DNA of 64,000 nt from Phoronis australis. Its lineage: Eukaryota; Animalia; Phoronida. Location: the NCBI GenBank assembly GCA_002633005.1, contig NMRA01000516.1, positions 138,562 to 202,561 of the forward strand, given 5' to 3'. Of this stretch, positions 1 through 60,134 are shown piece after piece. Under the pieces are notes generated by a model, which saw only the letters and a program-made list of their open reading frames with translations, was not told the origin of the DNA and did not search any database. Positions within the stretch are counted from its first letter, which is position 1, and every line of letters starts with the position of its first letter. The position numbers and the translations under genes are program-made.

Positions 1-660
1 TTATTATTTCAAATGAACTTTTATCATGGAAATGAACAATTGATAAGAAAAATAAATTGTGCAGGGTTTCAGGTATCCTTGTGAAAGAGCTCACAGTCAT
101 ATCAAGTTTAGGGTATACCTGAATGGCCTTGCACGACTTGGCTTCATCTAGTCTGGTTTAGGTACACCCCAAATCATTTTGGGTGTACTCATAAAATTCC
201 GAATGTGTATTCAGCTCTCACCTCTAGGTACACCCCAAATCATTTTGGGTGTACTCATAAAATTCCGTTTGTGTATTCAGCTCTCACCTCTGGGTACACC
301 CCAAATCATTTTGGGTGTACTCATAAAACCGTGTTTGGGTGTTCAGCTCTCCAGCTCTGGGTACAGCCCAAATCATTTTGGGTGTACTCAACATAAACTT
401 GGTATTCAGATTTTAGGGTCTGGGCACACTCTTAATCATTTTGACAGTATTTGTGAAATTATGTTTGAGCAATCAAGTCTCAAGACCTGGGTACCCTCCT
501 AATTATTTTTACTGCACTCATTGTCCCAAAATTCCAAACTACAATATTTCAGATACACCGAAAACGAATTTTGGGTGTACCTGAGTGCAGTCAAAATGGA
601 TTTGGGTGTACCTGAGTCCCAAAAGGTTTACTTTTGCATTGCTTTTTCAACCAACTTAGT
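1..660 (+). repeat. Left TIR, inner part, with 66-bp palindromic subrepeats
   Basis: Units start at ~161, 227, 293 and 359, then degenerate. Each has GTACACCC-CAAATCATTTT-GGGTGTAC. Inverted match to 19400-20066. Confidence 0.9.
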
Positions 661-1478
661 GTCTGGCATTACTCTGCCACCGACAAGGGCATGTTTATTA
701 CATTCAGCCTTACTTTAGGTGAACAAATGTTTGTATGAATGAGTTAATTTTAGCTAGGTAAACGGAACTATTTTTTACTTCGTACTTGTACATATCATAC
801 CGAATAGCGACTCATACTGTGATGTGGGTTTCTTTCCCTTACTGTTAACATGAAAAACCAGTGACCTGAACTTATAGTATCTTTATTATGCTGAGCAGAA
901 TGAGAACACATAACAAGACAAGACGGACAGTCATAAATAAAATGCCTGGAATGCTCTCTAATGGTATACTGTCCCTGTATCTGATACCACCTGCTGTGTG
1001 TGACTACTTGATAAAAGCAGTAATGAGGAGTCAGGTCTTCTCTGACATAGGGCTAATTTCTAACTTTAGTAATATAATAACATATTTTACAAAAGTAAGT
1101 AGTCTACATAAAAAGTTGTCTTTTTGACAGAAATCAGCAGTTTATTGCACTAATCGAAAGTTGCTAACAGCGTTTTTGATGTAACTAGTGAAGTTCTCAT
1201 TTAAAAAGGTTTCATTAAAATCTACCAAGGGGTTATTTTGCTATGAATGTACATTTCTTAAAAAATTAAATGACATGAAAAAGCTGTTAACCTAATAACA
1301 ATTCTGGTACATCAATATAAAACAAATTATATTGTCAAAGCTTAGTTTTTTGATGTACGAGTTACAAGAATGGAGGCCACTAAATTAGATTTGAGACAAC
1401 CCTAACCTAGGTATACTATTTAGATGTAATATCATAACAAAAGTCCATAGAAAGTAACAAATAACATCACTATTTTCA

Positions 1479-4400
1479 CTACTCGTCCTCCAGTGCTGTT
1501 GAGTGCAGCTGAGGTGGCCCTGGGCTACTATCGCTGAATTCGTATGGGTCCGGATCTCCAGCAATAATAGCCATGGCTTGAATGTCCTCAGCTCTCATGA
1601 GTTTCTCATCCACAGCAGTGGCATTCTCTTCCATAGCATTCTCACTCTCTTCCACCACATTCTCACTCTCTTCCACCACATTCTCACTCTCTTCCACCAC
1701 ATTCTCACTCTCCTCAACACTCACACTCTCTTCCACCATACCCTCACTCTCTTCTACCACACTAGCTCTTCCTTCCTCACTTACAGACTGAGTACTTATT
1801 CCGCTATCGTCACCCATGCAATGGCTAAATAAGTCCGCTTGCGACAATTTCTGCACATCTGCCTCCACTTTCCTCTTGTACTTGCCAACAATGGACTGCA
1901 CGATGGGGTTGTGACCGATATTGTTTCCATTGACAGTCACAGAAATCTGGCACTCCACTTGGTTCATATTCAGTCTTTCGTTGACTTGCTGGCAGTACTC
2001 CAGAAGCTGCGTAGGGATTTTTCGATCTGTGAAAAAATCAAGAAGCCTATTACCGCATGCGCATACATGTAGAAAAATGTAGCAGTAATATTTTTGTGGT
2101 GTAAAGTCGATGAACTGCAAGGTAAATTGACATAGGTCCAACTGCCATTTTTCCCTGTTCATCAGTACTATACACCTATTGTGTGTAGTTGATAGATAAT
2201 TTTTGTTCGGCCAAAGGCATCAAGTATACTTTGAAGAAGTATGGAATGCCTCAAATTATATCATCATGAAATTGTTTCAAACAGCTTCTTCATGTCATTT
2301 CTTCATGCCTACTTGGTTGTAATACTATTACTAATCGTGTAATAGGTGTGTTGCAAATATGTTATCGTTAAGACAAATGAGTGATGAAGATCACAAGATA
2401 TCATGTTAATCCATATCTCTTTAAACTGACAAATGTAGACTGACAGAACCAACCTTACCAGACAATTTCACCATTGGTAGGAACTTTGACAATTGTTCAT
2501 CAGATGAATACTGGGGGAACTTGTCTCTGGCCTCCTCAAAGCTGGAACACTTCACTCCATATGTGAACCCTCCTTTCACAACTTTCATTTTCTTGTAGTT
2601 GTCAATTTGACTACTGAACATCTTCAAATTGCCATGGGCTGTTAATGCTTCATCAAGAAAATGCAGTTGCTCACATTCCGAGAGTCCCAGCAGCTTGATA
2701 AAAAACTGCAAAATGTAAATCAAAGTTACAATTATATGGATTAACCGAGGATGACAGAATGTTTCACAAGTTGCATGATGTCATACTAGGCTTTTCATCC
2801 TTTATAACAATATTGAGCAGGTAAACTTCACCTAATACTATAGCCTCAATGCTGGCTATACTGTAGACAGGGGCAAAGCCCAAGCAGGAACACTGGTTCT
2901 CTCGAAAAGTTAAGGAGCCTGTCTTCATCAAGACCAGACAACCCACCATGAATCTAGCCTAAGGACTGCAGCTCCTCTGCTGTACCAATTTATTCTAGAT
3001 CTAGGTCAACAAAACGCTTGTAATCCATTCATTGAAGAAGACCTTAGATGAGGGTGGAAACTTAGAATCCTCCACAGCAAAAAGTTCGTAGTAAGAGAAT
3101 TTTACCTGATTTTAAGCATCATGCAACTTAAAAAAACTCCATGATGCCATCAGTTGCGATTTCAGGTATACATGAGTGCGTGTTTTTACATGCAAATATT
3201 GTTATACTTGCTATTATTGATAATTCTGACTTTCAACACATTGAAACATTATATACCGATAATAATCATGTGACCTTCCCCATGATGCCTGACTAATTCA
3301 AGAAGAAGTCTAATAATAGATTCATCTTATACTTCCCAATATGATCCGTTGTTCTACTATAAATTGTATAATAGCTAATGTATATTAACGACAAGTATTA
3401 AAATCCCTGTTTTAATAGGGACAGAGATAAATTGTCCCTTTCCTTCTCGTAGCAGGGACGTTATTCTCATTTTTTTACATCAGTGTCAAAATCTTCTCCA
3501 TTGAGTTTCTCATTCAATCTTAGAAAGGGAAAACATGTAGGATAGTAAATAAAACATTTGGAATCACACGCACCCGAGTTATATAGAGGGGTAAACAAAC
3601 CTTTCCTGTGACTAACAAACAAGACATTTTGTACTTGTAACCAAAATAAGTGACATTAATGGCAGTGGGTGTTTATTTGAATCTGCACTTCAGGCAACTA
3701 CTAAAAGTTGACTTTTTTAAAAATTCATTTTGTGGTTTAACACCCATGCTTGGTTTAATGCCAACCCCATATTTTTTGCTCACAATTGTAATGCCGTGGG
3801 CACTCACCTGTATATGTACGGTTATATGAAATTATTGAATTATTTCTATACAATTCTCAACTTACAGTTTGTCCAACCTCTGTTTGTGTGCAGTTTTCAT
3901 CCATTTTTTTCAATTCTTCTTTGTCAAAGAGCAGCAACACTTTACTGAAGCATCTGTTGCTTAGTGAGGCAACCTTGCAAATATAAGTTACAGCTTGTGG
4001 ACCCTAAACGAAAAAACAAAAAGAACAGTGCTACTTTTAATGCCATTATTGGAATTTACTGTATTGTTACGCAAATCGTGTTAGCATAGCTCAAAAACAT
4101 ACCACTCCTAACATATCACCAAATGCTTGCGAATTGCAGGAGACAATCACTAGATTACCAAACAATCGCAAAGAATATGCTCAACTGAGAGATAAAATGT
4201 AATATGCTATTATTTTTGGCTGTTACTTATATTAGAGGCAATTCTATGTTGATCTTGTTAAAAGTTCACAATACTAATTTATTTTGCACCGTCAATGCAA
4301 AATTTATAACTTGGAATATCTTTTCGAGCATTCTTAAATACAGCATTCATACCTATTTTGACTAGAAAAAATAATGTACAACAAACTTGGCGAATATGTC

Positions 4401-7400
4401 AGAAAAGATACTTCACATAGAAAAATTATTTTGTTCTTAGCATGCTGTGTATGGTTCAAATGTGCTTTGAGATTATAAGGTTAGCTTTGAGCACTTGCAG
4501 CAATGTAGTATATCCTTCAAAATAGAAAAAAATGGCAACTTCACAGTAATTATTATTTCCTGATATGATACTCATCTTTTGTCTATACTAAAGAGACAAC
4601 GATGTAGATTAATTTATACTAGTATAGGTATTTAGCTGGCTTACAGATTCATACCAAGTGATCCATTGCCAATTCCACTTGACACTTTTCCTTTATCTTT
4701 TGAGACACGCTGCTGCATGGGAATCCTTCTTTCCCCAATTCTTCTTGCATAATTCGTCTCGCGAGCTTAACCCTGTCTTGAAAGAAGGGTTTTTTGCCGG
4801 TTGTTCTGTGGTTATGCTGACTTGCCAGTCGCCTTGCTTCATGATTTGAGAGGCCAACGTAAACGTCGACCTCAACAAATCTGATTGCTTCTAGATGGTC
4901 GTCGTCATTCTCTTGGAGTACTTCCTGACAAGCTGTCCTCAAATGATTTCCTCCCAGAGTTTGTAACTTGTATTGCGCCAGTTTACCAGAGTCAAACTGG
5001 TCCAGCGATGGAACTTGCTTGCGATCAATTAGACAAGGAAGTACAGTGGAGTGTGGCATTGTTGTGTTTCGTACTAAACCTTGCTTGATGGAGTTCACCC
5101 AACTTCTACTAATATCTCGGACAAAGAGATCGTTGCTGGGTTTCTGCAAGGTTATCATGGACACTCTGTGTCTTCCTGAAACAAATAGTAATGAATTCTC
5201 AAAGCAGTTTAATTAGATAAAAATCTGATCATACCTACATTTTTCTGCACTGGAGACATGATAAGACCCATATTCTCTGAGCTTATGTTTTATGATTCTA
5301 AGTAATTGTATCACCCTGTTAAAACTCAATGAAAATATGTGTTATTGCAGCAAAGCAATCATTTCCACAGCCCACCAATTAACAGTTCTCAGCTATCACT
5401 AGTTCTAAACTTAGGTCTCTTAGGTCTGATGTCATTTCGACATCATCTTTGGCATAATTTTTTTTCCTGGCATGATAAATTTTCAGTCCCAACGTGTTAA
5501 ATTTTGGTTCTGACATGATAAATTATAGGTTCTGAAGCGATAAATTTTGGTTTTGAGTATGGCGTGATAAATTATAGGTTTTGAAGTGACAAATTTTGGA
5601 TTTCTAGAAATTGTGCAAACAAATTTAAATCAGCTTCCTTTTTCTGTAATGTGTGTCACCTAAAAGGCAAAAAAATCGAATCTTGTAAGTGAAAGAAAGT
5701 ATACCTGCGTATTTCTCTTGGAGTTGTTTGTCAACAGCAAGAGATACTATCTGGTTGCTGGGTGGACCAACATCAATGTTGTCTGGAACACTCTGAAGGG
5801 GCATTGTTGCTCTTGTCTTTGATTTTGGTGCTTCAACGTCAGGTGCTTTTGTTCGCTTCTTTGTCTTTGTTCCTTTTTTTACATTACTATTCTTGGTCAG
5901 GCACGATATGAATGACATGCCATTGAGCACTTGATCATGAAAAGTACTTGAAAACTTGTTACGGGTAGAATCAAACTTAGATCTAGCAAAATTTCGTTTT
6001 TCTCCACATCCCCGGAACTTGAACTGTAAAAAAGAATATTAAGCTCTGAGCTCAACAACAACATGACTGTGATACAAAGCACTGTAAATCTGACCTAACA
6101 CAAATGTGTTTTATATTATTCAACCCTCTCAAAATATGCTATTCAACAAAAGTTCTGTTTTATGTGTATAGATAATTCTTCACTAAGAGCTCAAAATAGA
6201 CAAGGCAAATTAACAAATGGTTTGACAAATGGACAAGTGGTTTGCTAAACAGGCAAGTGATTTGCCAAATAAGCAAGACTACTTTGCAGACTCTGTTGGA
6301 TAAACAAGTAAGATGACAAGTGATTAAGTAGGTTGCCAAACAGACAAGAAACCTGGGAGGCACAACTTTCAAATAATAAGTCAACTGTCAACTCAACTTT
6401 CCTTGTAAAATTACACAAGTGTCACTTCGCNCCCTTCCTAATGCCACAGTTTTCTAACTGTGGATGGTGGTTTAGTCAGGAAGTAATTGAAAGATAAGAA
6501 GCATGCTGAGAAACCCTGTCAGCAGTTGACTATTAATCATGAAGGGTGCTGAAAACTATGTCCCAAAACACTGTAAGACTTCTAGATTTGTTAAATTATG
6601 GATAAGTTCATATGAAACCAACTCATGTAAAGGCTCTGCGGGTATGATGCGAAAGCTACCAATCTATTCTGTTAGTTACATTTTTGACAAGACTGACCCT
6701 CAGTACATGTATGTAATGCAGAGCATTTTTGACACAAAGAGGAAAAATTGTTGTACGTTGTTAATAAAGACTCAACATAAATTTGAAGCTACCGGGATGT
6801 TTTATTTCTGGTTATGTTTTGATAAACATGACTGAAGAAAGTTTTTCAAAATTTGAAACAAAAAAATATGCTGTGTATATGCACAACTAACTGCAATAGT
6901 ATAGCCGAGTACCAAATACAGGACCACATCAATTCAAAATTTTGTAAAAAAAGTGGATAACCCAGTAAATTTTGCAACCACACATGATTGCATGTCATAA
7001 TGTTAAATTTGACTTAAAATTATGGATTGACAATTAATTGGCGGGTGGCTGAACCAAGATTTGGAGATGGTATGTGGTCGTAAACAGTTCTATTTACTTT
7101 TAATCAGGCACCTTGATTTCAACAAGCAATGTCACCACGACTACTATAATTTTAATTTAAGAATGGTCACTGACAAATTGAGAAAATCTGAACATGAAAA
7201 AGTATGTATTTATGCAAACATGCAGAACCATTGTAGTTTGGACACAACACTCCGTTTTCAAACATTACGGTGAATTCATGCAAGAAGTGAATTAATTGCA
7301 AATATATTTTCTTTTCAAGTAAATTTTGGCATGCATTGAAGTAGTCAAAATTAATTCAACATTTCATTTGCATGTTTACTTACACTGGTGTATTCAGCTG

Positions 7401-7524
7401 TTCGACCAGGCGAAACTTCTTCAATAGCTCCATAGTCTTCCCCATCAGCAATTCTTGTAAGTTTTTGACCATTAATGTGAACAAAAATATCACCGCCTTC
7501 TTGAACAAAATACCACTTAGACAT
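1479..7524 (-). CDS. Transposon accessory protein with ParB/sulfiredoxin-like N-terminal domain, helical region and acidic tail (~637 aa, 6 exons)
   Basis: Exons 7524-7384, 6023-5705, 5175-4655, 4003-3866, 2705-2459, 2026-1479. All introns are GT-AG and the phases join into an open 1914-nt CDS. Motifs: VRDISRSWVNSIK, LQTLGGNHLRTAC, VDVYVGLSNHEARRLASQHN. Confidence 0.8.
1624..1775 (-). repeat. Coding 21-bp minisatellite (EESENVV heptads)
   Basis: Tandem TTCTCACTCTCTTCCACCACA units in the last exon of the ParB-like gene. Confidence 0.85.
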
Positions 7525-7899
7525 CTTGCCTGGAGCACTCACAGTATCAAAATAGTTCAAATCAGTCACTTTCTTATTTAGTTTGAGCAAATGCTGACAA
7601 AGCAAAACCAATCAGATACCATGGTCTCACTTTAGTTTTGGAGGGAACATATTTCATTGGATGGGCAAGATACTTATTCAATAACAGTGCCATGGTCATG
7701 ATAATACTTAACAGACTATCAACTATGACTGAAAACAAATTACATGTCACTCAGTACATGTATAGGCCACATGGATTAATCAAACTTTAAAACTGTTGTT
7801 ACAGACATTAAGGTTTGAGCTCAAATTGACAATCAGAATTTCAGTGGCTTCACATAACTTCCTACATTGAAGTTGGGTTTTATCTAGCTCGTGTTAAAA
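7525..7899. promoter_or_regulatory. Putative bidirectional promoter
   Basis: Only 375 bp separate the divergent predicted ATGs (7524 -, 7900 +). Inferred from geometry only. Confidence 0.5.
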
Positions 7900-10656
7900 A
7901 TGTCTTGCACGGAATCGGAAGATTTTTCAGATTTTTCCGCGTCTGATGAAGACTTCCCACAAGTGGATGTGAAAGAAAATGAGTTTTTCACTTCTGGTAA
8001 GTACTTCTCACACGTAAGTTATGAATTTTTGCATTTCCTACTATCTTAGTTGTTTTTTGCTAATTAATCTATAGATTAAATAACCTTGTCTGGCCCTCTG
8101 ATATGAACCCTAGGTAAGAGAATTGCATACTGAAAAATATTTTTAGAGCGACAATATAAAAACTGCATTAAATTATCATTTGTTCAAAATGAATATTAAA
8201 TCAAAACAGGTTTTCTGATAAAATACAACTTTAGAAACAGTGTTTTAAATTAAAGACGGTCACAAGTTTTGAATTATGTCATAGGTATAAGTTTTAGTAG
8301 CTGTTGCTACTTGACATTTGGAATACTGACAGTTAAGAGAAAACTTTGAAGTGATTAGCAAACTGGGAATAGAAATCAACATGCAATTTACATTGACACT
8401 CGGTTTATACTGGAGTAAAGTCAGCATAAAAGGGTCGTAAGTTGTATCTGAAAATTTGTGAAAACAATTCATGTATCAAATTCATAAAGCATATGTTTCA
8501 GGCAGGGATGATTCAGCATTGTTTTGTCCTCTTTGTTACAAGCTGCACAAAAATGTCCACAAACATATCACATCTGCCCCCTCTCCCAAATTCTTCTAAA
8601 CTTCAGCGCTGAAAATGCCATACTCTCGGTAGTTTTAAACTGAATTTCACAGTTGTGTGAATAATGAAGGAAACAAATACTGTCACGCATGCAACAGTGC
8701 AGCAAAATTATCAATGGATTGCCGAAGCCCAAAATTAGTAGTTTTCAATGGAAAGAGTTTTTAGCTATTCACTTCAAGTGCACGATTTTAAGAATTAATT
8801 AGTAATGAAATGTAGCATTCTTGTCACTTAAGTCCAGAACTTCGGATGACCTGTGACAAAAAAGAGGAAAGACTTCCAGCCTGGAAGTGATGTTTCGTTT
8901 CACAAATAAATACGCTTGTGTGATAGGAATATTTTTTGTGTTGTAAAATTTAACTGAAATAAATGATTTTGCATCAATAAAGTCAAAATAATGATAAAAA
9001 GAGACAAAAAAGATGAAACTGGAGACCAAATAAGAGGAAATAGAAACCAAAATAGAGCAAATCCTATTAAAAAGGAACATTCCAAGCCCTGTAGGTCTCA
9101 ACATTGTAAAATATAGCTCATCCTCCTAGTCACTGAAAAGCATTTTAAATCACCAACTGACACTTTAGCTCAAGTGAAAACAAATGAGGCTAGTATTACA
9201 TAATAGTACCTCTGATAACAGACAAATGCACAATTCAGATTGTGGTTCTAGAGACTGGAAAACAAGAACCATTTGGAATTTCTGAGTTTTAGAGTCCTGC
9301 CTAAGAGTTGTGTGTGGAGTCCACTACAAATGAAGTTAGGACTTGTATGTCACTTGGCCAATTATCCTTTTACAAACAGATGGTAGACCTGTTGTTGACA
9401 ACACAACAAATGCTTTCAGACACTGTCACATTTACGGTAAATTCAGGGGTCACCTAAACCACTGGTATTACAATGCACTGTAACATTTTCAATTTTTCGT
9501 TAAAGTTAGTGTGCGCAATATAAACTGAATAGTCACACTTTATAGTGGAAGGGCATAAACAATAAAAAAACTTCCAAAATATGTACAAGGAAGTGAAATT
9601 ACTTGTTTGTAAAGAGGCAGTCCTCATTACTGACGCCTGAAACAAAAATTACAAACCAGTCTATGGCAAACTATCACCAATTTCAAGCAAACAAAATTGA
9701 TTAAACTGTCCTTTTTCAATTTTTAAGGGCGTCCAACAAAGGTAAGACAATCAATGTTTCAAATATTGTCATTCTATGGCACGTGTGGTACAAAACTTTA
9801 AAATGGTGTTAATCTGGTTTAATTTTTTTAAAAAGAAAAGTTGAGAAAATAATTTTTCTTGTTTGTCATATTGTGTACCGATACGAATTATCTAAAGTAA
9901 GGCAAATCAAACAACGTACAGAAACCTGTTTCTTGTTCCAGGTGCAACTGAATCATCTTCTGACCAAAATTCTCTGAATGGTGACATTTCAAGTGATGGT
10001 TTATCTTCTGATGAATATGACTCAGAAGATGGCGTGGAGCATACAGCAAGCAAGGGTATTTATATATTTTCTGCTCAGTTCCTCTAGTTCACATTGGTAG
10101 ATGCATGCTTGTACATTTAAGCGACAAAAGAATATTGCTGCATAATTCAACACTCTGCCATGTTTATTCAGCAGGTCAAAAGAGTAAAAATTGGTTAAAA
10201 TGAGTCATTTGTGTTTAAAAACTGTTAGAACATCAATCCTGTATTGTTGATTCACTTGCTGTGTCATCAGGCGGTAGGTGACAAACCAAGTTTTCAGTGT
10301 ACTGTAGAAACCTTGATTAATATGACCACATCAGGCTAGAAATAGGATTGACTACAGATGTTCACCAATAAGTCAAATCTTCCTTTTTATTCTCCCACAA
10401 CATTGTCAGGCAGTGGTGAAAGTCATAGTTATTGTAAGACACATTGCCTTTCACTTTTCACATCCTGTTGGAAGTGTTTAACTGAGACATGTTTTTTGTT
10501 TGATTTGCCAACCAATATTTTAAGATGGTTTCCTACTCCTAGGTTTGCCTTCAGTAGTTAGTGACTAAGCAAGCACATGTGAAGTGACCTTGCATATTTT
10601 AATGATTAAGATTTTCGCTTTGCCATGACATTCAATGCGTGTGCACGCACATGTGC

Positions 10657-10704
<48 letters not shown>

Positions 10705-13700
10705 AAGGGTGCATGCGTATTTGCATTATTGAAATTGAGCTTTGAATTGAAAAATATTTTTTTGCATTAAGTGAATATTTGGAGTTTAAAAACCAAACCT
10801 GTGGACACTATAAATTTCCTTGGACCTCCAGCACAGGTACTCTAATTTGGGGTTTTGTGTTGTGAAAGGCAGTGACGACAACATCATGCTGCTCTGGGTT
10901 TGGTTGGTTTATGTTGCAAATCAACCTTGCCTGCATTCATCGAAAACACTGTTTCTGCCTATTTTTGTGTTACTGTTGGGTGAACTTGTCTTTTTGTAAA
11001 CAAATGTCAAGTTTATTTAGGAAGCATTAAAATTGACTCAGAAATAGTAAAGTTGCAACTTGTGCTGGTTTAAGTGAAGTACACTGTCCAAAAACACTTG
11101 GCCAACTACAACATTATTACGCTACCAGTGTAATTAGTTATTAGTATGGCTCTGAGGGCAACCAGTCTGACGATGACATTTCGAGTTTCAATATATCGCC
11201 TAATGTAGATGAGTAGAAGAGTCCAATTAGTACCTGTGCCCAGCAGTGAAAAATTGTAGAAGTAATGCAGTGATATGAGGAATTGTGTTTTGTATGGTGG
11301 ATAGAGAAAAAATGAAATTGCATACTCTGAAAGATTGTTGAAGCAGGTCAGGTCAAAGTCTTTGAATCCATTCAATCTCACATTTACTAATATCATAGGG
11401 TTGCCTTATAGGTTTAGTGTAGTTGCAGCTCTGGTTATCTAAGGTCATTCCAGTATAAAGAATCATTGTGGTTTGAGTTCTTGCTATGTAACTTTCTGTG
11501 GTCTGTGCCTGTAAATAAATCAGACCACATACAATCCCCACATCAAGCCATAAATCCAATAACAGGCTTGACCAATATTGCTCTGAAGACAGTTACTAGA
11601 GTCCAAGCTTGGTGACCTTTAAATGTTTTGTCTGAGTGTTGTTTGGTGGAATTTCCTTGGCATCATTATCAGTGTATTCTCTTATGAGTGTTCACAGTCC
11701 AGAATGTATTGCACCACCCAGCCTAGTCCATTGTGTGGATGCCCTTTTACAACAACCTCATTAACTTTCTCCTGTTTACAAAAATTTTGTCATTGTGCTG
11801 AACTATCAACCAATGATTGTACATAAGGACACAAATAGACTTACATTCCTATCATAATTGACAGTGCCTGAACACAAATGCTTATAACTCTAAAGGATGG
11901 GTTGGGGCAGCACAGCAGTGTTTTCATTTCATCATTTTTAAGTGGAAACAAATAGTGATTTCAGTTTGGTTTACAATTAAAACAATTGATATTTTTAAAA
12001 CTGTTTTACTTTCAAATTATTTTTTTCGTTTTTAAGCTTGTTCTACTTTTAAAATATTTTAACACAGTTTTTATATCAGATTTTCTTTTTAAACATGTTT
12101 TACTTTCAAATTGTTTTTCCCTTTTAAAAACAAAATATTTTCAAATTTGTTTTCTATTATTTTCTTTTTGAACATGTTTTACATTGAAAATAATTTTCGT
12201 TTCTTTTAACTTAGAATATGTTGTTTTCTTAGCAATTTAGCTTGGGATCGGTGTGCCCCCATAGAATGGAAAAAGCTTTCATTCAGCACTTCACTTGCAA
12301 AGGTACTAGTAATTGATTCATTGCCCATGAGTTTTAATATTTTAAAATTATATCTCACTGGATGAATATAATTTTTGGGTTGAGTAAATTTATCAGACAA
12401 AAATCTTATAAATACTAGTTGAGTTGACGGAATAATAATTTTATTTCTTTAATTTATTGAATCAAAATAAGAACTTCCACCAAATTCATTCATGTCCCCA
12501 TTTCTGATGTTATCTTGCATAAAATGAGACTTTCATGAATCCCATCACCATTTTGGAACACAGGTTATGTGCACCACAGGATCTGAAAATTGTCCTTGTA
12601 GCAAACTTTCATTAAAATACGTGATTATTTTGATGTTACAGCCAAACCCTGGTTACCACCAAACATTTACCTAAGTGAAGACTCTAGCATTGGGTGATGC
12701 CTGTGTTCTGAGCCACTTGTCATTTAATCAAGAAGTAACAATTTTATATATAGTTCGCCTGGTTCAACTACAATCCACAACTGTGAAAGAAAAAACAGAC
12801 AATGCAAGAGGACAGAAATTTTGATCATGCTTTAAGTGTAGTTGTTTCATGATCAGAGTTTGTGAAGTTGACGATTTTTGGCTTTTGAATGAGGCGCAAA
12901 GCACCCACTGAGCTGAAAAAATGCAACGCAGTGCAGTTTACAAAAAGACACGAAGCAATCTAATCTATACTTGTTACACCATGTGGTGATATTTGAATAT
13001 ATACTACCATTAATCCAGATCAAAAGTTTAGGAACCAGCATTTACGCACTATTCTGTCTATGACCGTATGGTAACCTTGATTCCAATAACTGTAGCACCG
13101 GACAGGAATACAGGTGACTTTCAAGCAAAATATGTAAACAACTTTGGTAACAATTTTATAGTATGAACTTTGCACCAAGTACCATAGTAATTGTGTCAAT
13201 ATTGTAGAATCGCACTATAATTTTAATACTGACTCCAGGTTTCTCTTAAATGCAGGAGCCGGGCGTGGTCGGCCAGTTGGCTCACTCAAAAGACAACGTG
13301 AAACAGACACGGATTCAGACTCAGAGAGCGAGTCAATTCCAACACACCACCTTAAGAAAAAGCCAGGTAACATCTGCTAATTAAATAATGCCGATTATGA
13401 TGTCTTTAGTAAAAGTCGACTAAAAATGTTTTTTTGAATTTCATGAAAAGTACAAAAGACCGAAATAACCAAGAATGCATTCAGCAAGGGAAAATCCTCT
13501 TTAGGCTTTTTCATAATGGCTGAACTCTGGTCTCAGCAGAGCGTCAATGTAAAATGCGAAGTTAACTAAACCGTTCATACTGAGTTTGGTAGTTAATGGA
13601 CATCGAAGTAACCAGTAGGTGACACTGTTGCCATCGATGTAATCGTAAGGTAGTGCTACACGCTAAGGTTTTTCTTAATGTGACAATTTGGGAATATTTA

Positions 13701-16700
13701 CATGTGCTAATTGACATGAAACTTATTTTTAATTCGATTGGTGATTATTCGAGCAAAATATTAGCGAATACACTACCCTTTAATTGTTGACGTTAAGAGT
13801 GGCACTTGGCAATAACTTCGATGGGACCGAAGTTGACCGTTCATACTGCACCGCAGCATCGACGCTCTGCTGTAAAATCCACCTGTTTAGTGGGAAGTTT
13901 AGTGGTGCTGTTAACTTTGATCCAGTCCGAAGTTAATCGTTCATACTGACTGCAACTCCCCAAAAGATCAACGCGTAGACGTTGCTAAGAAAGGCGCTTT
14001 TTAGGATGACTTTATTACTTGTGTCTTACACTGGTTGATTTTTTGCAGCAGTAAAGAAGAAGCTGATTCCATTGGGAAAGCTCTTGTCAGCACAATGTTG
14101 TGTCCTCTTGTGTCTATCACTTATGGCTATGAGAGAGCTGCATCAAGCCAGATCTGATTTTCAACAAATGGGAAAGTCAGAACAGCGACAATGGATCCTA
14201 AATTACTTGCGCACACATTCTACGTGGAATAAAAGATCGCTCTGTATGGATTATTCTTATATGATTGGAACCACACAACTGTGCCTTCTTGGATGGAGGA
14301 CAGCACTTGGTATCTCCCAAAGCACATTTAGACGGATCAAAAGCAAGTTTGAGAGTAAGATTATTATGGTACTATATCAAGACAGTGCTGTTAAAACAAA
14401 TTGTTTGAGTTCTCAAATTGTTTTTTTTTAAATATGCTACATTTAAAAGGGCATTAATAGCATTTTACACTACTGACTTAATTCTTTGCATACCTTTTTG
14501 ATACTTATTGCCAACTCAAAAGAGTATTCCTTTTTTATATATTTGGAGATCACAGATGTGTACTACACTGATATGAAAATAATGTCTGGATTTAGGTTAT
14601 GTCTAGACCTTTTTCCGATATCACGAGATTAGTGTACCTTAATGAACAAAAATTTTCACACAAAATTTTGTTTCTACACAGTGTTACTACAAACTGTTCA
14701 CTAACTTTGCAGTGTTACACTGTACGCACGAAGATTGGTTCAGGTGTATGCTAGTTGGGCCTGGATTTTATTCATTATAGTTTCAGGTTAGTCACACATG
14801 ATGTACTGTTTTCCATTCTTCTGATGTTTATGTATTAAAGCAAAAAGTCAGCTACAAATTTATGTATTTTATTTTTGCTTATTGTCACAAATTGCTGAAT
14901 CATGTATATCTTAACACATCAACTGTGAATGATTTCAGATGGCCAACTGAATGGTTCTGGATATGGTGTTCGAACAAAAAGACTGCTGCCTTCGACTCAG
15001 GCATGCCTCACTTGGTTAGAGACGTATGCGCAAAGATTTGGTGACAAGATGCCTAATAACCATCAGATACATCTTCCCAGCTGCCTAACCAAGCGTTGCC
15101 TGTATCAACAAATGGTTGCAGAACTCAGTGACCAAAATATAGATGCATGTTCTGAACCTCATTTCTACAAATTGTGGAAAAACAACTTAAAACACATAGC
15201 TATTCCAAAGGTAACACCTTTTTCATGAAACATCAATTTTACAAAAAGCTTTTTACCTGTCAACCACTCGGTTCTCCACATGATTGCAATTTTTATAGAG
15301 TTATGCCCATGATAAATTCACTTTGGGGTAATCCTAAGTGCAAAAATTGACCCTTTTCTCGATATTAAAGACTTACTGTATTGAACAAAAGTTTTAAAAC
15401 GTGTAAGACATGTAATCACTAAAATACTAGAAGTTGTATGTCAATTCGCAATGGACATGTTAATATCTAGTATTTGTCTTCTAGGAAAATCGCTTTGCGA
15501 AATGCGACGGCTGCACTAAAATTAAATCAAAGCTGGAAAAAACAAAAGATAAGAAGAAAAGGGAATACCTACGAAGAAGACGGGAAATGCATCTTATGAA
15601 ACAAAAGTAAGTTGGGTGCAGTGTAACTTAACATAATCATCCAGGTTGGTGGCAGTGGTTGGCTAAATGTCTTTCCCTTTTACTTTTTAATGTCAATGCT
15701 CAGTTCTACCTTCATTACTTCTTGGAGAATTTCAGCTACCTAATCCCACACAATTTCCTTGCCACTTAATAAGAAACAAAAGCACTGCTTGCACTGGTTT
15801 ATGAAATAGCTTTCATCAGTACAACTGCCTGGGTGTATTTGATTACTCGAGAAATGCTGACTCAAGAAAGTTCTTTTAATAGACCTGTGCTTAGCTTAAT
15901 GTAATGCCTTGTACAAAATATTACTTAGAAAATTCAGTCTTTATGAGAAACCACCTCATTTGCACTACCATGCCAGGCACTTGACTTACTATAATAAATC
16001 ACATCTCTTACAGCACAGAGAGGAGAAAGTATTACAAACACTCCACAAAAGCCAGATGCAACAATCGAAAATACATGTCCATGATCATAGATGGCATGGA
16101 TCAAAAGAAAACTTACTTGCCGTGGTTCAAGCGCACCAGCAAATTCCTAAGCAGTATGTGGAAACTGAAGGTTCATGTGACAGGAGTTATTGTGCATGGA
16201 ATATTAGTGTACGGATATTTTGATTTAGGACAGTGGGGACAGGGTCCCAATGTCACGGCCAATTTACTTTTGATGACATTGTGCACTCTTCGTGACAGTT
16301 TGCCACCAGTGCTCTACTTACAAATGGACAACTGCTACAGAGAAAATAAGAATGTGTATATTCTAGGACTGTGTGCTCTGCTCATAGAATTACGTATTTT
16401 CCAAAAGATAAAAATTGGATTTCTGATGGTTGGGCACACTCATGAGGATGTTGATCAGGTGTTCTCAAGGTTTTCTTCATATTTACATAAGCATTCTGCC
16501 CTAACAATAACTAAGTTGATGAATGCTTTTCGCAACTCATTCAGTCCTGAGCCCAAAACGAAATATGTAACACAAATGTATAATATTACTGACTGGCTCA
16601 GGCCACATCTAAACAAGATTAGGTTTCACTCCGTGCCACATCAATTCAAATTTCGATTAGACGAGACTGGGCGATGTATGCTGTTTGCCAAAAAGTGGTC

Positions 16701-18850
16701 ATCAGACAAGAAGTGGCTTCCTTGTGACTATAACGAAAGTGATGGCAAATACCTGTTGAAGTCTGTTCCAGAGGGATCACCAGCACTTTTGCAGCCCAAC
16801 TTTGACAAGATCGATTTTGACAGACTTAAGCATGCTGTTAGTTCATCGTACATTTACATGAACCACGAAGAAGACAAAGAATGGTGGAAGGAATGGTTTG
16901 ATGAGATGGATGATGCTATGGACAGTAAGTCAAAAGTCAACATCTGTTTTTTTAAATGTGCTTCAATGGTATTTTGCTGACATTGAGTCCAATCTCAAAA
17001 ATACTGAGAAGAAATATGGTGAGGTGAACCTTATTTTTGTCCACTTGTAAAGTCCGTGAGCACCATTCTTCCATCAATAATAACCCCAACAAACAATCAC
17101 TAGCTCAACAGTAATTTCCATAATCATATGAATATACATATCTGCTGGAGTCATGATAACCATGGTTAATGGTTATTTTTTGTGATGCATTACGAAGAGT
17201 AGTCAGTCGAAGTATAGTTACATTTACCATGAAAATGTGTCCCGGTAACGGTGTCTTCATTCAGTCGAGTTAAGAGGTGGTCTGTAGTGTTCCAACTCTT
17301 TGAGGGCTGAAAACCCTTTAGCTATCTGAGGCGTTTATTAGGGCTATTCACTTTGTAGAAACAGAAGTGAAGTCCTATCATAGCAATAAAAATTTTGAGG
17401 CAAAGAAAAAATGGCCTGGTTTTGATTTTGCCTTTCGACTGGCTACACGAATGAAAATGCACCTTTCATAAAAACTCACAAATTTCTCGTGGGTTTACAT
17501 TTCAGATACTGTTGAAAGAGATGATCAACAGTGGTACTTGAACTCAATTTTGTCAGCAAAAAGTAATGCTGGCCATTCTGAGATTGAAACGTCAGACCAT
17601 GAAAGCATTTCAGGACTCTCCGACTTTGATGAAGAAGATAATCCGATGCGTCCAGTAAGTTTTGTTATTGAGCATGTAGCTAGCTAAGCGAATCTAGAAA
17701 TAGTTCAAAGTGACATATCCTTTCACATGGAGGAGGAACATTCTTTCGGTGACAATAATTTTTGTCCAAGTGCAAAGGTCATTTACAGCAAGCATGCACA
17801 ATATACTTCTTAGACATTTTTAGGCTTCTAAGAGTCACTTTGAAATGTTCAAGTGATTACGACAATTTCAAAATGTTAAACATCATTCAATGATAGAATA
17901 GTAATTCATCATCCTCATGCTTGCAGTGCCTTTTAGCTTGTTACATAGACTTAGACACAAATATTCAGTAATGTATCGTATTCAACAGATTAATTCCCGA
18001 GTTGTTTTATCTGAATACTCAAAATCAGGGAAGGGCCTTAATTGAAGCATGGGATTTAGTAGTTTGAGGTGATACATTAGGTTGACCATCTGTCAATAGC
18101 TGCATAAATGAAAGTCATCTTGCCTGCAAGAATAAGAAACGAGTCAGACACTAAGAATTTCACAAATTCGTGCTTTTGTTGCTCTGGATAGAAATTAGCA
18201 ATTTCAAACATATGGTGTTTCCAACTATAAAAAAACTAATAACCTAATAGAGATGCATACAACTAAAGGTAACTATTGTAGTGAAAACTTGAAAAATGAG
18301 ATAACAGGCATTAAACAGGACACTGGTGTGTATCCAGACTACTAAGATACAATTGCATGTTTTAAGAATTGCCTGTGGGTATGGGTGTGTCTATGTTTGA
18401 GTCAGGTAAGTGTAAAATTGAATTTTGAATGATGATTTACCTTTACAATTCCTCAGGAAGTCATTTTGTATTTTACAGCTTTTACTCGGAAGCTCAACAA
18501 GCAATAAACATGTCATCCGCAGCGAAACTGTTCAAGTTTCGCCAATTAAACAGGGAGACATGTGTTTGCTAGATATCGAAGAGGAACGTAGTTATTGGCC
18601 ACAAGTGGCTGAAGTGATGGAAGTGGAAGGGGACAATATCGTAATAAAATGGTACCGAGGGTCCCTGACCACTTCATTTAGTGTCCTCACTAGACCAGTA
18701 AAAGGGTGCCGAGGAAAACGTGAACCATGGACCGAGACAATCAATAAAAATGTAGTGTGGTACAATGGCTTTAAGCTGACTCGAAAACAAAACCTTCCCA
18801 AGGATGTAAGAGAAAGATTGAGGGAGTATGAGATGGACTTGGAAAATTAA
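7900..18850 (+). CDS. Sola-like (DUF7869-type) DDD transposase, ~817 aa, 9 exons
   Basis: Exons 7900-7996, 9942-10055, 13256-13366, 14049-14354, 14939-15210, 15485-15606, 16014-16924, 17506-17654, 18479-18850 give an open 2454-nt CDS with GT-AG introns. Catalytic motifs IIDGMDQ, LYLQMDNCYRENKN, FLMVGHTHEDVDQVFS; also GDKMP, FYKLWK, CDGC..H..H and AT-hook GRGRP. The first three exons are less certain. Confidence 0.88.
10658..10702. repeat. (GT)n microsatellite in transposase intron 2
   Basis: About 22 GT units. Confidence 0.95.
13504..13997 (-). mobile_element. Harbinger-like MITE nested in transposase intron 3
   Basis: Inverted, diverged copy of 25195-25695 (CTCTGGTCTCAGCAGAGCG, GTTCATACTG repeats); GGC.TTTC..AGAAAGGC ends. 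Confidence 0.55.
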
Positions 18851-19399
18851 AGGGGACCAGTGGTAGTTTATGTAACATCTTTATCTATTTTCCATTTTTT
18901 ATGTTACACTGAAATATGACCCGTAAATCAGGATCCTCTCTGAACTGCTTACTTTATGTGATTGGTTGAGTCAGTTTGTCTAATAGCAAGTTCAAGAAAA
19001 ATGTATTTGTATGTAAGTAACACTTCTTTTATTCAATCTATTAAGCATTTTTGATTGTATCCAATATCATGGTAAATAGAAGTCTGTGTTCTTTAAATTT
19101 GTGGTTAACAGCAGAGGGCTTTTCAGTCTTGTCGTGTTGTTTTTGACAAGTTTTCACTAGCATAATAAAGACCTTTTAATTACATGTTGCTAGTTTTTCA
19201 TCACTATTTGGTGAGAGTACCAAACCTGGCAAGAGAATGTGCACAAGACTGGGCAATAGGCATTAGGTTTGCCTACCAAAAATTTTAGTTGTGTGCACCA
19301 AGATGAAATTCACTGACAGTCTAAACTTGGGTTTATTCATCAAAGTAGTCCAAGAGTTGTTTCTAATCTCAGGCAAGCAACTGATAAATGACTGGGTAC

Positions 19400-20066
19400 T
19401 GCTGAAAGTAAGTTGGCTGAATGAGCATGGCACAAATAATTCTCATTGTAACTAATTTACACCCAAATCCATTGTGACTATGCTCAGGTATGCCAAAAAT
19501 TCATTTTGGTGTTTACCTACAATTGCAGTTTGGAATTTTGGGTGAATAGGTGCAGGCAAAATGATTTGGGCTGTACCCAAATCCTGAAAACTGAATGCAC
19601 AAACAATTTGATGAGTACACCCAAAATGACTTGGATGTACCCAGAGCTGGAGAGCTGAATACACAAACACAATTTTTGAGTACACCCAAAACCATTTGGG
19701 GTGTTCCCAGAGCCTGAGAGCTGAATATGCAAATGCAATTTTATGAGTACACCCAAAATGATTTGGGGTGTACCCAGAGGTGAGAGATGAATACACAAAC
19801 GGAATTTTATGAGTACACCCAAAATGATTTGGGGTGTACCTAGAGGTGAGAGCTGAATACACATTCGGAATTTTATGAGTACACCCAAAATGATTTGGGG
19901 TGTACCTAAACCAGACTAGATGAAGCCAAGTCGTGCAAGGCCATTCAGGTATACCCTAAACTTCACGTGACTGTGAGCTCTTTCACAAGGCTACCTGAAA
20001 CCCTGCACAATTTAATTTTCTTATCAATTGTTCATTTCCATGATAAAAGTTCATTTGAAATAATAA
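19400..20066 (-). repeat. Right TIR, part matching the window's left end
   Basis: Reverse complement of 1-660: near-identical at 19739-20066, diverged inward. About 5-6 66-bp palindromic units. Confidence 0.9.
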
Positions 20067-20628
20067 CATGTTAAGAGTGATTCAACGTTTGTCATAACTT
20101 TGAGTTCATGTTGATTTTGCAGCCCAAACCTCTACACACAATGTCTTATCCTCATTCAAGCTGACACAAAATGTGAGTTGATCCAAAAACTACAATTATG
20201 AATTAATATACTACTGAAGATGAGAGGCGTTCCAACTTCATATACTACCTGCATAGTCAACAGTTTCTACCGACTCTTGTTTTCTGTTACAAACAAACTT
20301 ACCTGGTAAAAGAAAGACCATTTGCAAGAAAAGTTTATCAAGCCACTGTCAACCAGAGTACATACATACCAAACTTCTGTTAGAGCTGCACCACACTCGA
20401 AAACCATACTTCATAAGTGCTCTCCTGACACAACTGCACTCTCTGACAGCTAAACCAACTCTAGCTCAGTATTTGGATATTTGAATAGGCAGTGAAAACT
20501 TTTGTTGCATATTCTTTGATGTTATTAAGGTAACATGTTTAGTCATTCAAATTGGGTGATTACCTCCCAGTGGCCTTTCAGAACTGCCAAGCATTTAAAT
20601 TGTATCTTTATTGAAGAGTTCTATCATA

Positions 20629-20960
20629 TTTTACACGTTCGACATGTTAGCGTGTAAAATTTTACATGGATCACACCGTAGCATGTCACATTTTACACGT
20701 TTGATATGCTAGCGTTTCCAAAAAAATTTACACGTTTGACACGTTAACGTGGCAAATTTTACATGTTTGACATGCTAACGTGGCAAATTTTACACGTTTG
20801 ACATGCTAACGTGGCAAATTTTACACGTTTGACATGCTAACGTGGCAAATTATACACGCTAGCGTGTCATGTTTTTACACGATTTTCACGTTGACGTGGC
20901 AATTTTGACACGTATTACACATTTTTTTACACGTTTGACACGCTCAAAAGCGTGCCAAAA
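20629..20960. repeat. ~31-bp tandem subterminal array (probable outer TIR)
   Basis: About 10 units of TTTTACACGTTTGACATGCTAACGTGGCAAA, each with inverted CACGTT-N9-AACGTG. Confidence 0.8.
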
Positions 20961-20977
20961 AAAAATTCTCACCCGGG

Positions 20978-22147
20978 TCATTTCCTTCATAGTCACGAAG
21001 TAACACAAAGTATACACCTGAAGACCTATGAAAATACAGAGGTTAATGTAAAATACTAAAATTGCCACTACCGGCATACCGGTAGTCAAAATCATCCTAA
21101 AGTCGTCATCATCCGTTGTCAACATCACATAAATGCTAAATTTAGTAAAGATCCTGCAAACGGTTTGGGAGATACAGCCATGCGCGCAAAAAAAACTGCC
21201 ACTAGGAGGCGCCCCAGTAATCAAAGTCATGGGAAATTCAGCGTCAACCATCCTCTTCATAGTAAGAACATACATGCCAATTTTCACAATCATACTTAGA
21301 GCGGTTTGGTTGATAGAGGGGTGGACGCCAAAAAACAGACTCAAGAACAGTAAAAATGGCCACTGGGTGTCGCAAACTAGGTCGAATCCATCCAAAAACG
21401 GGAGGATAGCGTCATCGCACTAATAGGTGCCTACATACCCAATTTCATGAAAATCCGTGAAGATACAGATCTAAACGTAAAAAATAAAATTGCCACTAGG
21501 GGGCACACTGGTATGCGGATCCGTGCAAAAGTCATCATCGTCTGCTTTTAACATCATATAAATATACTTATTAAATTTCGTAAAGATCCTACGAACGGTT
21601 TAGGACATACAGCCATAGGTGCAAAAAAATAAAACTGCCACTAGGAGGCGCCACAGTAGTCGAAATTGTCAGAAAATCATCGTCAACGGTCCTCTACATT
21701 AGTAAGCATATACATGCCAATTTTCACAATCATCCTTAGAGCGGTTTGGTTGATAGAGGGGTGGACGCACAAAAACAGACTCGAAAACAATAAAAACGGC
21801 CACTAGGTGGCGCAAACTATGTCGAATCCATCTGAAAACGAGAGGATAGTGTCATCTCACTAATAGGTGCCTACATACCAAATTTCATGAAAATCCGTTC
21901 AGGACTTTTGAAGATACAAAGGTAAGCGCAAAAAAATAAAAATGCCACTAGGGGACACACCGGTAGTCGGATCCATCCAAAAGTTCGCACATGCCGTCCC
22001 ATTCATGAATGGAACATATGTGCCAAATTTCATGAACATATGTCAAAGGATTTGGAGATAGAGCAGTGGACGCCGGCCGGACGTCGCCCGTACGGACGGA
22101 GATGACGGCATAATGCGTCCACATATAAATATGTGGGCGCATAAAAA
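20978..22147 (+). mobile_element. Helentron-associated/pearl-like non-autonomous element, 5'-truncated
   Basis: ~145-bp core subunits with CCACTAGRxGGC, a GGAC-type microsatellite remnant, and a 3' hairpin ATGCGTCCACAT..ATGTGGGCGCAT followed by an A-run. Homologous to 60135-61684. Confidence 0.65.
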
Positions 22148-22338
22148 ATGTCACTAGGAGGTAAAGCAGTACTTGAATCAGACAGAAACTCATTGCCATC
22201 TGTTGTCAGTTTCATAACAACAAATCACATCACCTGATTAAGATCCTACAAGGTGTTTCAAAGACAAAGCAGCAGGAACACCACAGAGAGATGACACCTT
22301 GCCTAAAAGGCTTAACACATAGGTGAGATAAAACATAC

Positions 22339-23833
22339 CACATGGACTCTCATCAAAGCCGCTGGGACAGTCCTTGACACCATCACATCGCAGTTTTTCT
22401 GGCAAATAGTTGAGGGAGCAGTTGAATGTGTCTGTGCACTTGGGCTCTAGACAGAAACCACAGGTACGTGGGCAGTTGTCCATCATCAGCTGTCTAAAGT
22501 CCTCTTTACCACATAACCCCACAGCATGAAATTGTGCACACTTAGACGTATTAGCATCAACACAAGGATTCACAGTTGTCCCAGAAAAGGAAGTCGTGTT
22601 GCCATCTCTTGTGGACATAGGTGCTGTGGACCCTACTGACCTTATAGTGCTGACCTGCTCTGCAGTAAACATGGAACTACAAAACTGGCATGTTAAAGCA
22701 CAATTGTCCTTCATCACTTGAAATAAACTTGGGTTGGAACAATGGCCGTGACTTGAATATAGCCTGCACAGAGTTTGGGGATAACTGTCAGAGCACGTGC
22801 TGGAAGTACTAACCACAGTTTTAGGAGTAGTCATAACAGCACGACTTTCTTCACACAAATCACAACTGGATGGACACGCTTGCAGCATCTGAGGTTTCTG
22901 CTTGGGATCTTTGCAGTATCCATTCTTTACATAAATCTCACATGTTGAGGGATGGAGAGAATCTGAGCAACTAAGTGGAGTTGTTGCACCGCAAAAGCCA
23001 CAAGTGAGAGAGCAGTACTCTCTCATGAACATCATCTGGCTGTGGCTGTTGCAATGTCCTGTTCTTGTAAACAAGTTGCACACAACAGTTTCTAGCTTGT
23101 CTCTACAGCCCGAAGGTGCCACACAGAATTTACAGGAAAGAGGACACAGAAACTGCATCTGGTTATCATTCAAACACTTGCCTTGTTCAACTAGCCTGGC
23201 ACAGGTACCCAAGTCATAGATATCCCTGCAAATGGGGACTGAACGAGTCGTTGAAAGACTATTTCTCATAGCTGAAAAACATTAAACACATGAAGCACCA
23301 AAAACCGAGTACATGAAATTACATCAATTATTATGAGAAATGAGTTCAAAAAAGTAGGAATTTGAAACAAGCAATAAATGCCATAAGCTTAGTCTGATAG
23401 GTATCAATTGTACATTAATTACAGTAGTTGACTAGTCAACACAACTTACAAAATGAGGTTAAACATTGTTGACCAACCACTAATGAGTCTAGCAATGAGG
23501 TTTATTCACTTCAGAGTGCATTAAACAGACAAATCTGAAAACTAAAACTGGTAAATCCTGATCCAGCTAAGAACAGAAGCTACCCACCATATGGTTGAAT
23601 CAATGGAATGAAGGGTAGTTGCTAAAGAGTGCCTAACACAGCCGTGAAAAGTTTTATTGATGTAACCAGTATACACTTGAACCCATTAAAATTTCATTTC
23701 GCATCGTTATCAGAATAGCCAGTATGAAAATAGATATAGAAACTGAAGAAAGCAGCTGTAATCATTTACCTGCACCATAACAAGTGCTCAAAAAGAAACA
23801 GACTGTAAACCCGATTCTGAGATATCCAAACAT
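22339..23833 (-). CDS. Secreted 5xShK + LDLa protein (gene D); final exon not in window
   Basis: Signal exon 23833-23770 (MFGYLRIGFTVCFFLSTCYGA). Exon 23271-22339 has five C.D..C..C..C...CxxC domains and CDGVKDCPSGFDE, ending at a phase-1 donor as in the paralogs. Confidence 0.85.
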
Positions 23834-25194: not shown

Positions 25195-25695
25195 GGCCCT
25201 TTCTTACTAGCGTCAACCCATTGATGTTTCTTGGAGTTGCGGTCAGTATGAACTTCGTATCGAAGATAACAGTGCCAGTTAACTTCGCAGTAAACAGATG
25301 GTTTTAACAGCAGAACATTGACCCTGAGGTGCCGTATGAATGGTCATCTTCAGTCCCATCGAAGCTCTGGCCAGGGGCTGCTCTTATCCTCAACTATTCA
25401 AGGGCAGTGTAGTGACTAATAGTTGCTTGTATTTTTGCTTGAATAATCACCAATCAAATTACAGTTAAGTTCTGTCAATTATCACATGTAAATGTCCCCA
25501 AACTGTCACATTTAAAAATCTTAGCAGACACATGATACATCAGCACTACCATGCGATTATTTCAATAACAACAGAGTCTGCTACCATTTACTTCCAGGTC
25601 CGTTAACTACCAAAGCCAGTATGAACAGTTCAGTTAACTTCACAGTTTACGTTGTCGCTCTGCTGAGACCGGAGTTAAGTCAGTATGAAAGGGTC
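25195..25695 (+). mobile_element. Harbinger-like MITE, ~500 bp
   Basis: Imperfect TIR GGCCCTTTCTTACT / AGTATGAAAGGGTC, preceded by TAA. A second copy is at 13504-13997. Confidence 0.55.
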
Positions 25696-58737: not shown

Positions 58738-58740
58738 TTA

Positions 58741-60132: not shown

Positions 60133-60134
60133 TA

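Follow-up and report, generated by a model that had tools for sequence, protein, structure and literature searches.

We describe a two-gene transposon in the genome of the phoronid Phoronis australis, which most likely spans positions 1..20072 of a 64,000-nucleotide stretch of DNA, hereafter the window (assembly GCA_002633005.1, contig NMRA01000516.1, positions 138,562 to 202,561 of the forward strand). Between its long terminal inverted repeats (TIRs), a gene for a Sola-like transposase of the DUF7869 family stands head to head with a gene for a ParB-like partner protein. The initial annotation of this DNA had suggested that it may be an undescribed class of two-component element. We find that it is not a new class but the animal version of a known algal design, with long TIRs that bear palindromes and a ParB-like helper that lacks the methylase. 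Our working proposal, to which we give somewhat less than an even chance, is that this is a Sola1-type cut-and-paste transposon in which the DUF7869 protein is the predicted DDD (three-aspartate) transposase and the partner a predicted ParB-fold helper that binds the palindromic arrays in the element's ends, pairing or shielding them.

Ends and size of the element

Comparing the first 21 kb of the window with itself revealed one long inverted pair, in which positions 1-658 match 20066-19409 at 85% overall. The outer 330 bp contain 8 differences (320/326, or 98%), which upholds the figure of about 98% first given for the outer TIRs, and the inner 330 bp are 70-74% alike. The left imperfect TIR (1..660, forward strand), whose first 6 bp fall outside the window, is built of 66-bp units, each with a 27-bp near-palindrome inside it (four good copies and one degenerate copy), while the right imperfect TIR (19406..20072, reverse strand) has 66-bp palindromic units and the terminus ...AACATGTT. 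Palindrome density is 16.7 per kb in the left TIR against 3.9 in shuffles and 19.4 per kb in the right TIR against 3.3, so that each arm has about four to six times the density of shuffled sequence. An Rfam scan gave 0 matches.

The right end reads ...CATGTT, with the last base of GTT at 20072 and AAGA directly after it. We took contig depths and loose ends from raw-read DNA runs of the same species label, and in all three runs (one sample) a 295-nt contig tracks the TIR over 19979-20072 and then diverges. A loose end also falls just before 20073, and where the sequence from 20073 onward recurs elsewhere, different letters precede it. Since this contig break coincides with GTT and relatives of the element end in AAC...GTT, the right end is most likely at 20072; position 1 pairs with 20066 in the TIR alignment, which puts the left end 6 bp beyond the window and the size at about 20.08 kb. 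The break, taken with the 4-bp duplications of the relatives, also predicts a 4-bp target-site duplication, AAGA, at 20073..20076 (forward strand), with its left copy outside the window.

The element had first been described as about 22 kb long, with an end at 20970 or 20974, 20073-20970 as its outer TIR and a 5'-GRG/CTC terminus. We consider it very improbable that a 22-kb element with a 1.5-kb TIR ends in CTC at 20970 and forms a new two-component class. Several observations do weigh on that side: multi-copy depth continues to about 20969 and is alike across 20072 (~1040 vs ~1090), which could mean one family continuing to 20970; 31-bp palindromic units lie near 20970; and about 3% of nearby positions end in GTT, which makes the coincidence at 20072 good but not final. 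An end at 20970 was in fact favoured at first from the continuous depth, but was dropped given the AAC...GTT ends and 4-bp duplications of the relatives. Among the loci scanned, moreover, 0 have GAG or GGG ends with a 4-bp duplication, and the two-gene design is already published for Sola1, as set out below. The segment 20073..20970 is thus probably another, separate multi-copy repeat (loose end before 20073, depths of about 1000-1700, 31-bp palindromic units of its own at 20628-20858), and the element appears to be inserted in it. This repeat ends in ...TTCTC and may itself be one end of another TIR transposon.

The predicted transposase gene

The transposase gene (7900..18850, forward strand) encodes 817 amino acids in nine exons (7900-7996, 9942-10055, 13256-13366, 14049-14354, 14939-15210, 15485-15606, 16014-16924, 17506-17654 and 18479-18850), all joined at GT-AG junctions and free of internal stops. 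The partner gene likewise gives an open GT-AG model, of six exons, in agreement with the earlier description of long inverted ends around two head-to-head multi-exon genes. The core of the transposase belongs to DUF7869 (PF25273), which its largest exon matches in Pfam at E 3.5e-72. A Mytilus protein aligns to residues 8-813 at 40% identity, across exon junctions, and a CxxC...H motif is present. From 645 candidates we obtained 115 homologous proteins, selected by this same DUF7869 exon, of which all 115 have D367 and D446 and 114 have D488; the window copy carries the motifs QMDNC and GHTHEDVD. This pattern of conservation suggests that the three residues are candidate catalytic aspartates and likely form a Sola-type DDD triad, which accords with the first identification of a Sola-like DDD transposase and a ParB-fold gene inside long TIRs.

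Named DUF7869 homologues come from bivalves, a nemertean, echinoderms, hemichordates, amphioxus, cnidarians, a sponge and a liverwort. On a tree of 70 rows, which took in 51 of the 115 proteins and 18 of the 93 loci described below and whose backbone is unresolved, the closest named relatives are nemertean and bivalve proteins, which would make a marine invertebrate host likely. The viral contigs searched held no transposase relative, and a literature search found no paper naming DUF7869. A conserved beta-rich domain of about 105 residues lies at the transposase C-terminus (18479-18847; P0020-P0114) and has no Pfam match, and some relatives carry the additional domains PF01753, PF02902 or PF18359.

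We compared the transposase region with two RNA runs (18-19% of reads, 85% likeness). Reads were scarce, with a maximum depth of 2.6 and none over two exons, and possibly come from paralogues; in most of them the first mate maps to the minus strand, the sense orientation under the usual protocol. Exon junctions were absent from the 15 of 87 joints listed, and both gene models rest on homology across junctions rather than on RNA. The 375-bp gap between the two ATG codons (7525..7899) would likely act as a shared bidirectional promoter.

These data bear on whether the element still moves. It could be an old immobile or domesticated two-gene locus, its genes kept for the host or slowly decaying, and we hold this to be improbable. 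Consistent with such a locus, the interior shows flat depth, unbranched contigs and no differences in run X1, which may derive from the same sample as the window, so that no second close copy is seen; the two TIRs already show 8 mismatches in 330 bases; RNA is scarce; and the long introns hold a microsatellite and a nested repeat. The nested high-copy repeat, in transposase intron 3 (13509..13994), is 75% alike to 25198-25690 and has a summed contig depth of 15,700-33,700 vs ~27 around it. Against this, the outer TIRs are still nearly identical and both frames are open, TIR-like sequence is multi-copy with another copy ending at the same base, and the element seems to sit within a multi-copy repeat that is uninterrupted in its other copies. 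Diverged relatives also cover the catalytic exon in the DNA runs. Together, these observations make recent movement possible, while the recent activity suggested in the initial annotation was overstated, given that the DNA runs show no second close copy of the interior.

The ParB-like partner gene

The partner gene (1479..7524, reverse strand) encodes 637 amino acids in exons 7524-7384, 6023-5705, 5175-4655, 4003-3866, 2705-2459 and 2026-1479. A small N-terminal domain is followed by a ParB-like core (residues ~154-300), a helical region to about residue 490 and an acidic tail (26 E, 8 D and 17 S in the final 117 residues), with no methylase domain. The core is encoded by the exon at 4655..5175 (reverse strand; GGNHLRTA ... 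VYVGLSNHEARRLASQHN). A profile of 12 cnidarian-type homologues matches residues 154-489, over four exons, at 53.8 bits, compared to 4.5 for the best of 300 shuffles. A profile search added 11 further homologues, of which the named ones are all cnidarian, and two coral-type copies compared over 85 codons show 17 synonymous changes against 10 non-synonymous ones (rough proportions pS 0.28 vs pN 0.05). By Atlas language-model features, the core exon lies close to clusters of sponge and mollusc proteins, to DUF3723 and to ParB_N (0.94-0.97); the resemblance to DUF3723 (PF12520), at 0.94, serves as a lead only, and a literature search found no paper pairing DUF3723 with ParB. Searched alone, the partner exon had no match in Pfam (including ParB), NCBIfam, PHROGs or PDB sequences, and 0 of 360 candidates matched when it was compared with longer proteins.

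A single-sequence fold of the partner exon reached a predicted local distance difference test score (pLDDT) of 35.6 and was not used; the fold assignment thus rests on a homologue and on the Atlas features, which counts against our proposal. We modelled the Exaiptasia homologue P0122 from a 13-row alignment (mean pLDDT 78). The model matches Noc and ParB, including nucleotide-bound forms, at E 4e-7 to 8e-7, and it aligns to ParB-N (Z 8.7, root-mean-square deviation (rmsd) 5.3, 219 residues), PadC (Z 8.6, rmsd 3.0, 97 residues), KorB (Z 8.1) and sulfiredoxin (Z 7.5), where Z scores of 7.5-8.7 are near the level that common arrangements reach too. The helical region past the N-domain of the family aligns to Spo0J and KorB and is kept in the window protein. 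The C-terminal 200 residues of P0122 resemble beta-class N6/N4 DNA methylases more closely (Z 14-17; best 17.4, rmsd 3.8, 187 residues). As modelled, the window partner therefore belongs to a family that combines a predicted ParB fold with a beta-class N6/N4 methylase fold, and its own copy keeps the ParB part without the methylase; a methylase-domain profile found nothing in window positions 1-21000 (best E 1.9). A DPPY-type motif was present in the methylase fold of 0 of 11 homologues, and two SPPF matches sit in the N-terminal part. Since the relatives have the fold without the catalytic motif and the domain is absent here, the partner is probably retained for something other than methylation.

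Bacterial and phage ParB, Noc and KorB, together with ParB-methylase fusions, share the core and helical-domain fold with the partner family, and the top viral matches span both domains. The partner family differs from bacterial and phage ParB in its low identity (10-24%), its eukaryotic introns, its place in a transposon and the loss of the nucleotide-motif arginine. ParB clamps that hydrolyse cytidine triphosphate (CTP) have this arginine in a GxxRxxA motif, along with a box-III asparagine. The window protein reads GGNHLRTA and the cnidarian homologues GGTHL; since the arginine is not kept, CTP-clamp behaviour is doubtful. We consider quite unlikely a model in which the partner acts as a genuine ParB-type CTP clamp, loading at the palindromes and then sliding, so as to bridge the two ends across 20 kb or, once the element is excised, to tether it to chromosomes. 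Such a clamp would fit the best structural matches, Noc and ParB with their nucleotide-bound forms, and a conserved H/Q-N motif at the place of the ParB box-III asparagine; a diverged and unlinked homologue (L103, G002:C17:1822458-1823772) also keeps the arginine, in a GGxHR motif. In the other 9 aligned cores, however, arginine occurs at the motif position in 0, with leucine in 6, and an arginine one place later occurs only in the window and L084. Similar Z scores for sulfiredoxin and SerK/SbnI further indicate that the fold does not fix the chemistry.

Linkage and complete relatives

We fetched 93 loci by the transposase only (the best 80 of 517 metagenome matches and 13 genome contigs), most of them too short to show a partner. 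The partner adjoins the transposase in 5 of the 93, head to head in L068, L071, L082 and L084 and tail to tail in L002. Of the 7 loci whose upstream flank reaches 5 kb or more, 3 carry it. No reversed control matched at better than E 1.1; a weak extra match in L037 (E under 0.5) was not counted as linked. In Nematostella, LOC5517433 (transposase) and LOC5517434 (partner) have consecutive identifiers on a 13,717,364-bp contig and are presumably adjacent. The co-occurrence that the initial annotation proposed to test is thus no one-off. Partner-linked transposases fall into five separate groups of the 70-row tree; judged from these sequences, the pairing is broad.

Two complete elements were found, of 13,750 bp in G001:C41 and 10,907 bp in G002:C12. 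Both start with AAC, end with GTT, are flanked by a 4-bp duplication (TTAG for L082 and ATAA for L084) and have their own palindrome arrayed at both ends, so that the window, L082 and L084 hold three different palindromes, each arrayed at both ends. A loose scan for TIRs with duplications gave chance matches (14 of 70 loci vs 4 of 70 controls), and we relied on the AAC-specific result instead. The genes of G002:C12 are flanked by a perfect 53-bp inverted pair, which we rejected as a TIR, as it has no duplication, holds a hairpin and borders Rep/helicase-like frames. To the right of the Sola-like element in that contig, L106 (G002:C12:~590800-597165) has long Rep/helicase-like frames that we read by eye as a Helitron, and its 53-bp hairpin end recurs inverted at 574549. 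The contigs G001:C41, G002:C12 and G002:C17 are long, carry spliced animal-like genes and microsatellites, and lie inside bacterial genome bins, where they are likely host contamination.

Relation to known elements

The element has the candidate DDD triad and TIRs of the Sola superfamily. Sola2 and Sola3 elements have GRG/GAG termini, and Sola3 a TTAA duplication; the window end maps to GTT|AAGA and so departs from both. The AAC...GTT termini shared by the right end of the window, L082, L084 and L010 are those of Sola1-1_Ec32, which is one example rather than a formal definition of Sola1. Membership of Sola1 is likely, and rests on the ends rather than on a comparison of proteins.

The nearest design in print, among the sources consulted, is Sola1-1_Ec32 of the brown alga Ectocarpus, published in 2025 (PMC12477816). 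It is 21,549 bp long, with AACCG-CGGTT ends, a 282-bp imperfect TIR, a 4-bp duplication and an opposite-strand gene for a 1104-residue accessory protein with ParB and N4-cytosine/N6-adenine (N4C/N6A) methylase parts. The two elements share a length near 21 kb, AAC...GTT termini, a TIR that is long and imperfect (282 bp vs ~660 here) and an opposite-strand ParB-like gene. They differ in host, a brown alga vs an animal, and in the predicted N4C/N6A methylase, which the accessory protein here lacks. In the red alga Bostrychia, Plavaka elements carry ParB genes beside inverted-repeat arrays (bioRxiv 10.1101/2025.02.11.637652). They resemble the present element in having a ParB-domain accessory gene, PAG3, beside tandem inverted-repeat arrays, but their transposase is of another group, their ParB is fused to a 2-oxoglutarate (2OG) oxygenase and their methylase is a separate gene. 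The authors of both algal studies propose self-binding, and across these elements ParB is paired with various chromatin-modifying domains (PMC12477816; bioRxiv 10.1101/2025.02.11.637652). ParB-helix-turn-helix methylase fusions also occur in chlorophytes and chytrids (PMC4738411).

A two-gene layout is known from Sola2 as well, in elements with Fanzor (PMC3627910). Like the present element, these are Sola elements with a second multi-exon gene; they have 4-bp duplications and are 12-13 kb long, and they differ in their transposase motifs (SDGAKHFK and YHGKSDVD vs QMDNC and GHTHEDVD here) and in that the cargo is Fanzor. Together, these three published systems answer the earlier suggestion of an undescribed class. 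The initial annotation had noted neither the methylase fold of the partner's relatives, which is absent from this copy, nor the palindromic arrays of the ends. The available parts of PMC4455052, PMC5751038, PMC5199201, PMC10294476 and bioRxiv 2021.09.26.461848 contain no Sola1 or Sola3 motifs, and the searched part of the Majorek supplement yielded no Sola1 proteins. Within the literature consulted, no animal case of Sola-ParB pairing was found; Repbase Reports, Bao 2009, Iyer 2011 and the supplements of the Bostrychia preprint lie outside this scope and may bear on novelty.

Proposed mechanism

In the mechanism that we tentatively favour, both genes would run from one shared promoter, and the DUF7869 protein would excise and insert the element, cutting at AAC...GTT and making the AAGA duplication. 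The partner would dimerise and read the palindromes through its helical domain, and on the palindromic arrays it would pair or shield the ends.

Several observations weigh against this mechanism. The partner was not found in 4 of the 7 loci with long upstream flanks, two of which belong to a distant environmental clade, the other two being absent from the tree. Partner and transposase matches of Exaiptasia and two Montipora species are on different contigs, no DUF7869 gene accompanies the ParB-like homologue of G002:C17 in the 40 kb examined, and the L071 partner has a frameshift. The intergenic control bin of L084 is also palindrome-rich (9.5 vs 2.7 per kb). L010, a 5.4-kb element with AACGG...CCGTT ends, has no partner, and repeated palindromes flank transposases without a detected partner in L006, L051 and L012, where the transposase itself may read the arrays. 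L001 likewise has repeated palindromes or inverted motifs around a DUF7869 transposase, with no partner detected.

Some of these observations would suit a different division of labour, the main alternative to our proposal, which we regard as possible but rather unlikely: in the same element, the end arrays would be read by the transposase, and the ParB-like protein would serve as a decoy or as a general factor for transcription or anti-silencing, with its acidic tail as an activation domain. The arrays and AAC...GTT-type ends that occur without a partner, the acidic tail itself and the algal elements that join ParB to various chromatin-modifying domains are all consistent with such a factor. 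On the other hand, the Spo0J/KorB-like helical region is kept both in the family and in the window protein, and arrays adjoin ParB genes in Plavaka too, despite its different transposase, and both points count against this division of labour.

Host neighbourhood

Beyond the element, the window holds a cluster of open frames with ShK-like repeat domains at 22241-23281, 33293-34447 and 48649-50337 (reverse strand) and 56866-57711 (forward strand), one of them with a low-density lipoprotein (LDL)-receptor A domain; this cluster forms the host surroundings of the insertion. Another cysteine-rich frame, the fifth, lies at 38386-39144 (reverse strand) and has no Pfam match. A very high-copy repeat with internal tandem units lies at 20981-22160 and 60133-61665, where reads of run X7 are almost all of one strand at depths of 200-700. 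A 1.4-kb repeat is present in two copies of opposite orientation (42811-44173 and 58739-60134) that are 84% identical.

Implications

Our findings extend an algal transposon design to animals and tie DUF7869, an unnamed Pfam family, to Sola-type transposons. They also lay out a natural series, in which a methylase is predicted in Ectocarpus, the fold persists without its catalytic motif in cnidarian-type copies and the domain is absent here. The authors of the algal study propose self-methylation (PMC12477816); the series points to DNA binding, rather than methylation, as the reason the helper is kept. A broader reading, which we consider doubtful at present, is that a two-gene Sola lineage is widespread among animals, from sponge-like lineages through cnidarians to bilaterians, and uses a bacterial ParB/parS-like code. 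The ParB helper of every family would then recognise that family's array and so pair or shield ends as much as 20 kb apart; the methylase would have decayed and, in this element, been dropped, with a methylase-free ParB left as a dedicated transposition factor. With their three palindromes, the three families would allow a direct swap test for specificity of the ParB/parS kind in a mobile element of animals, and the system may be informative about how the ends of very long elements meet.

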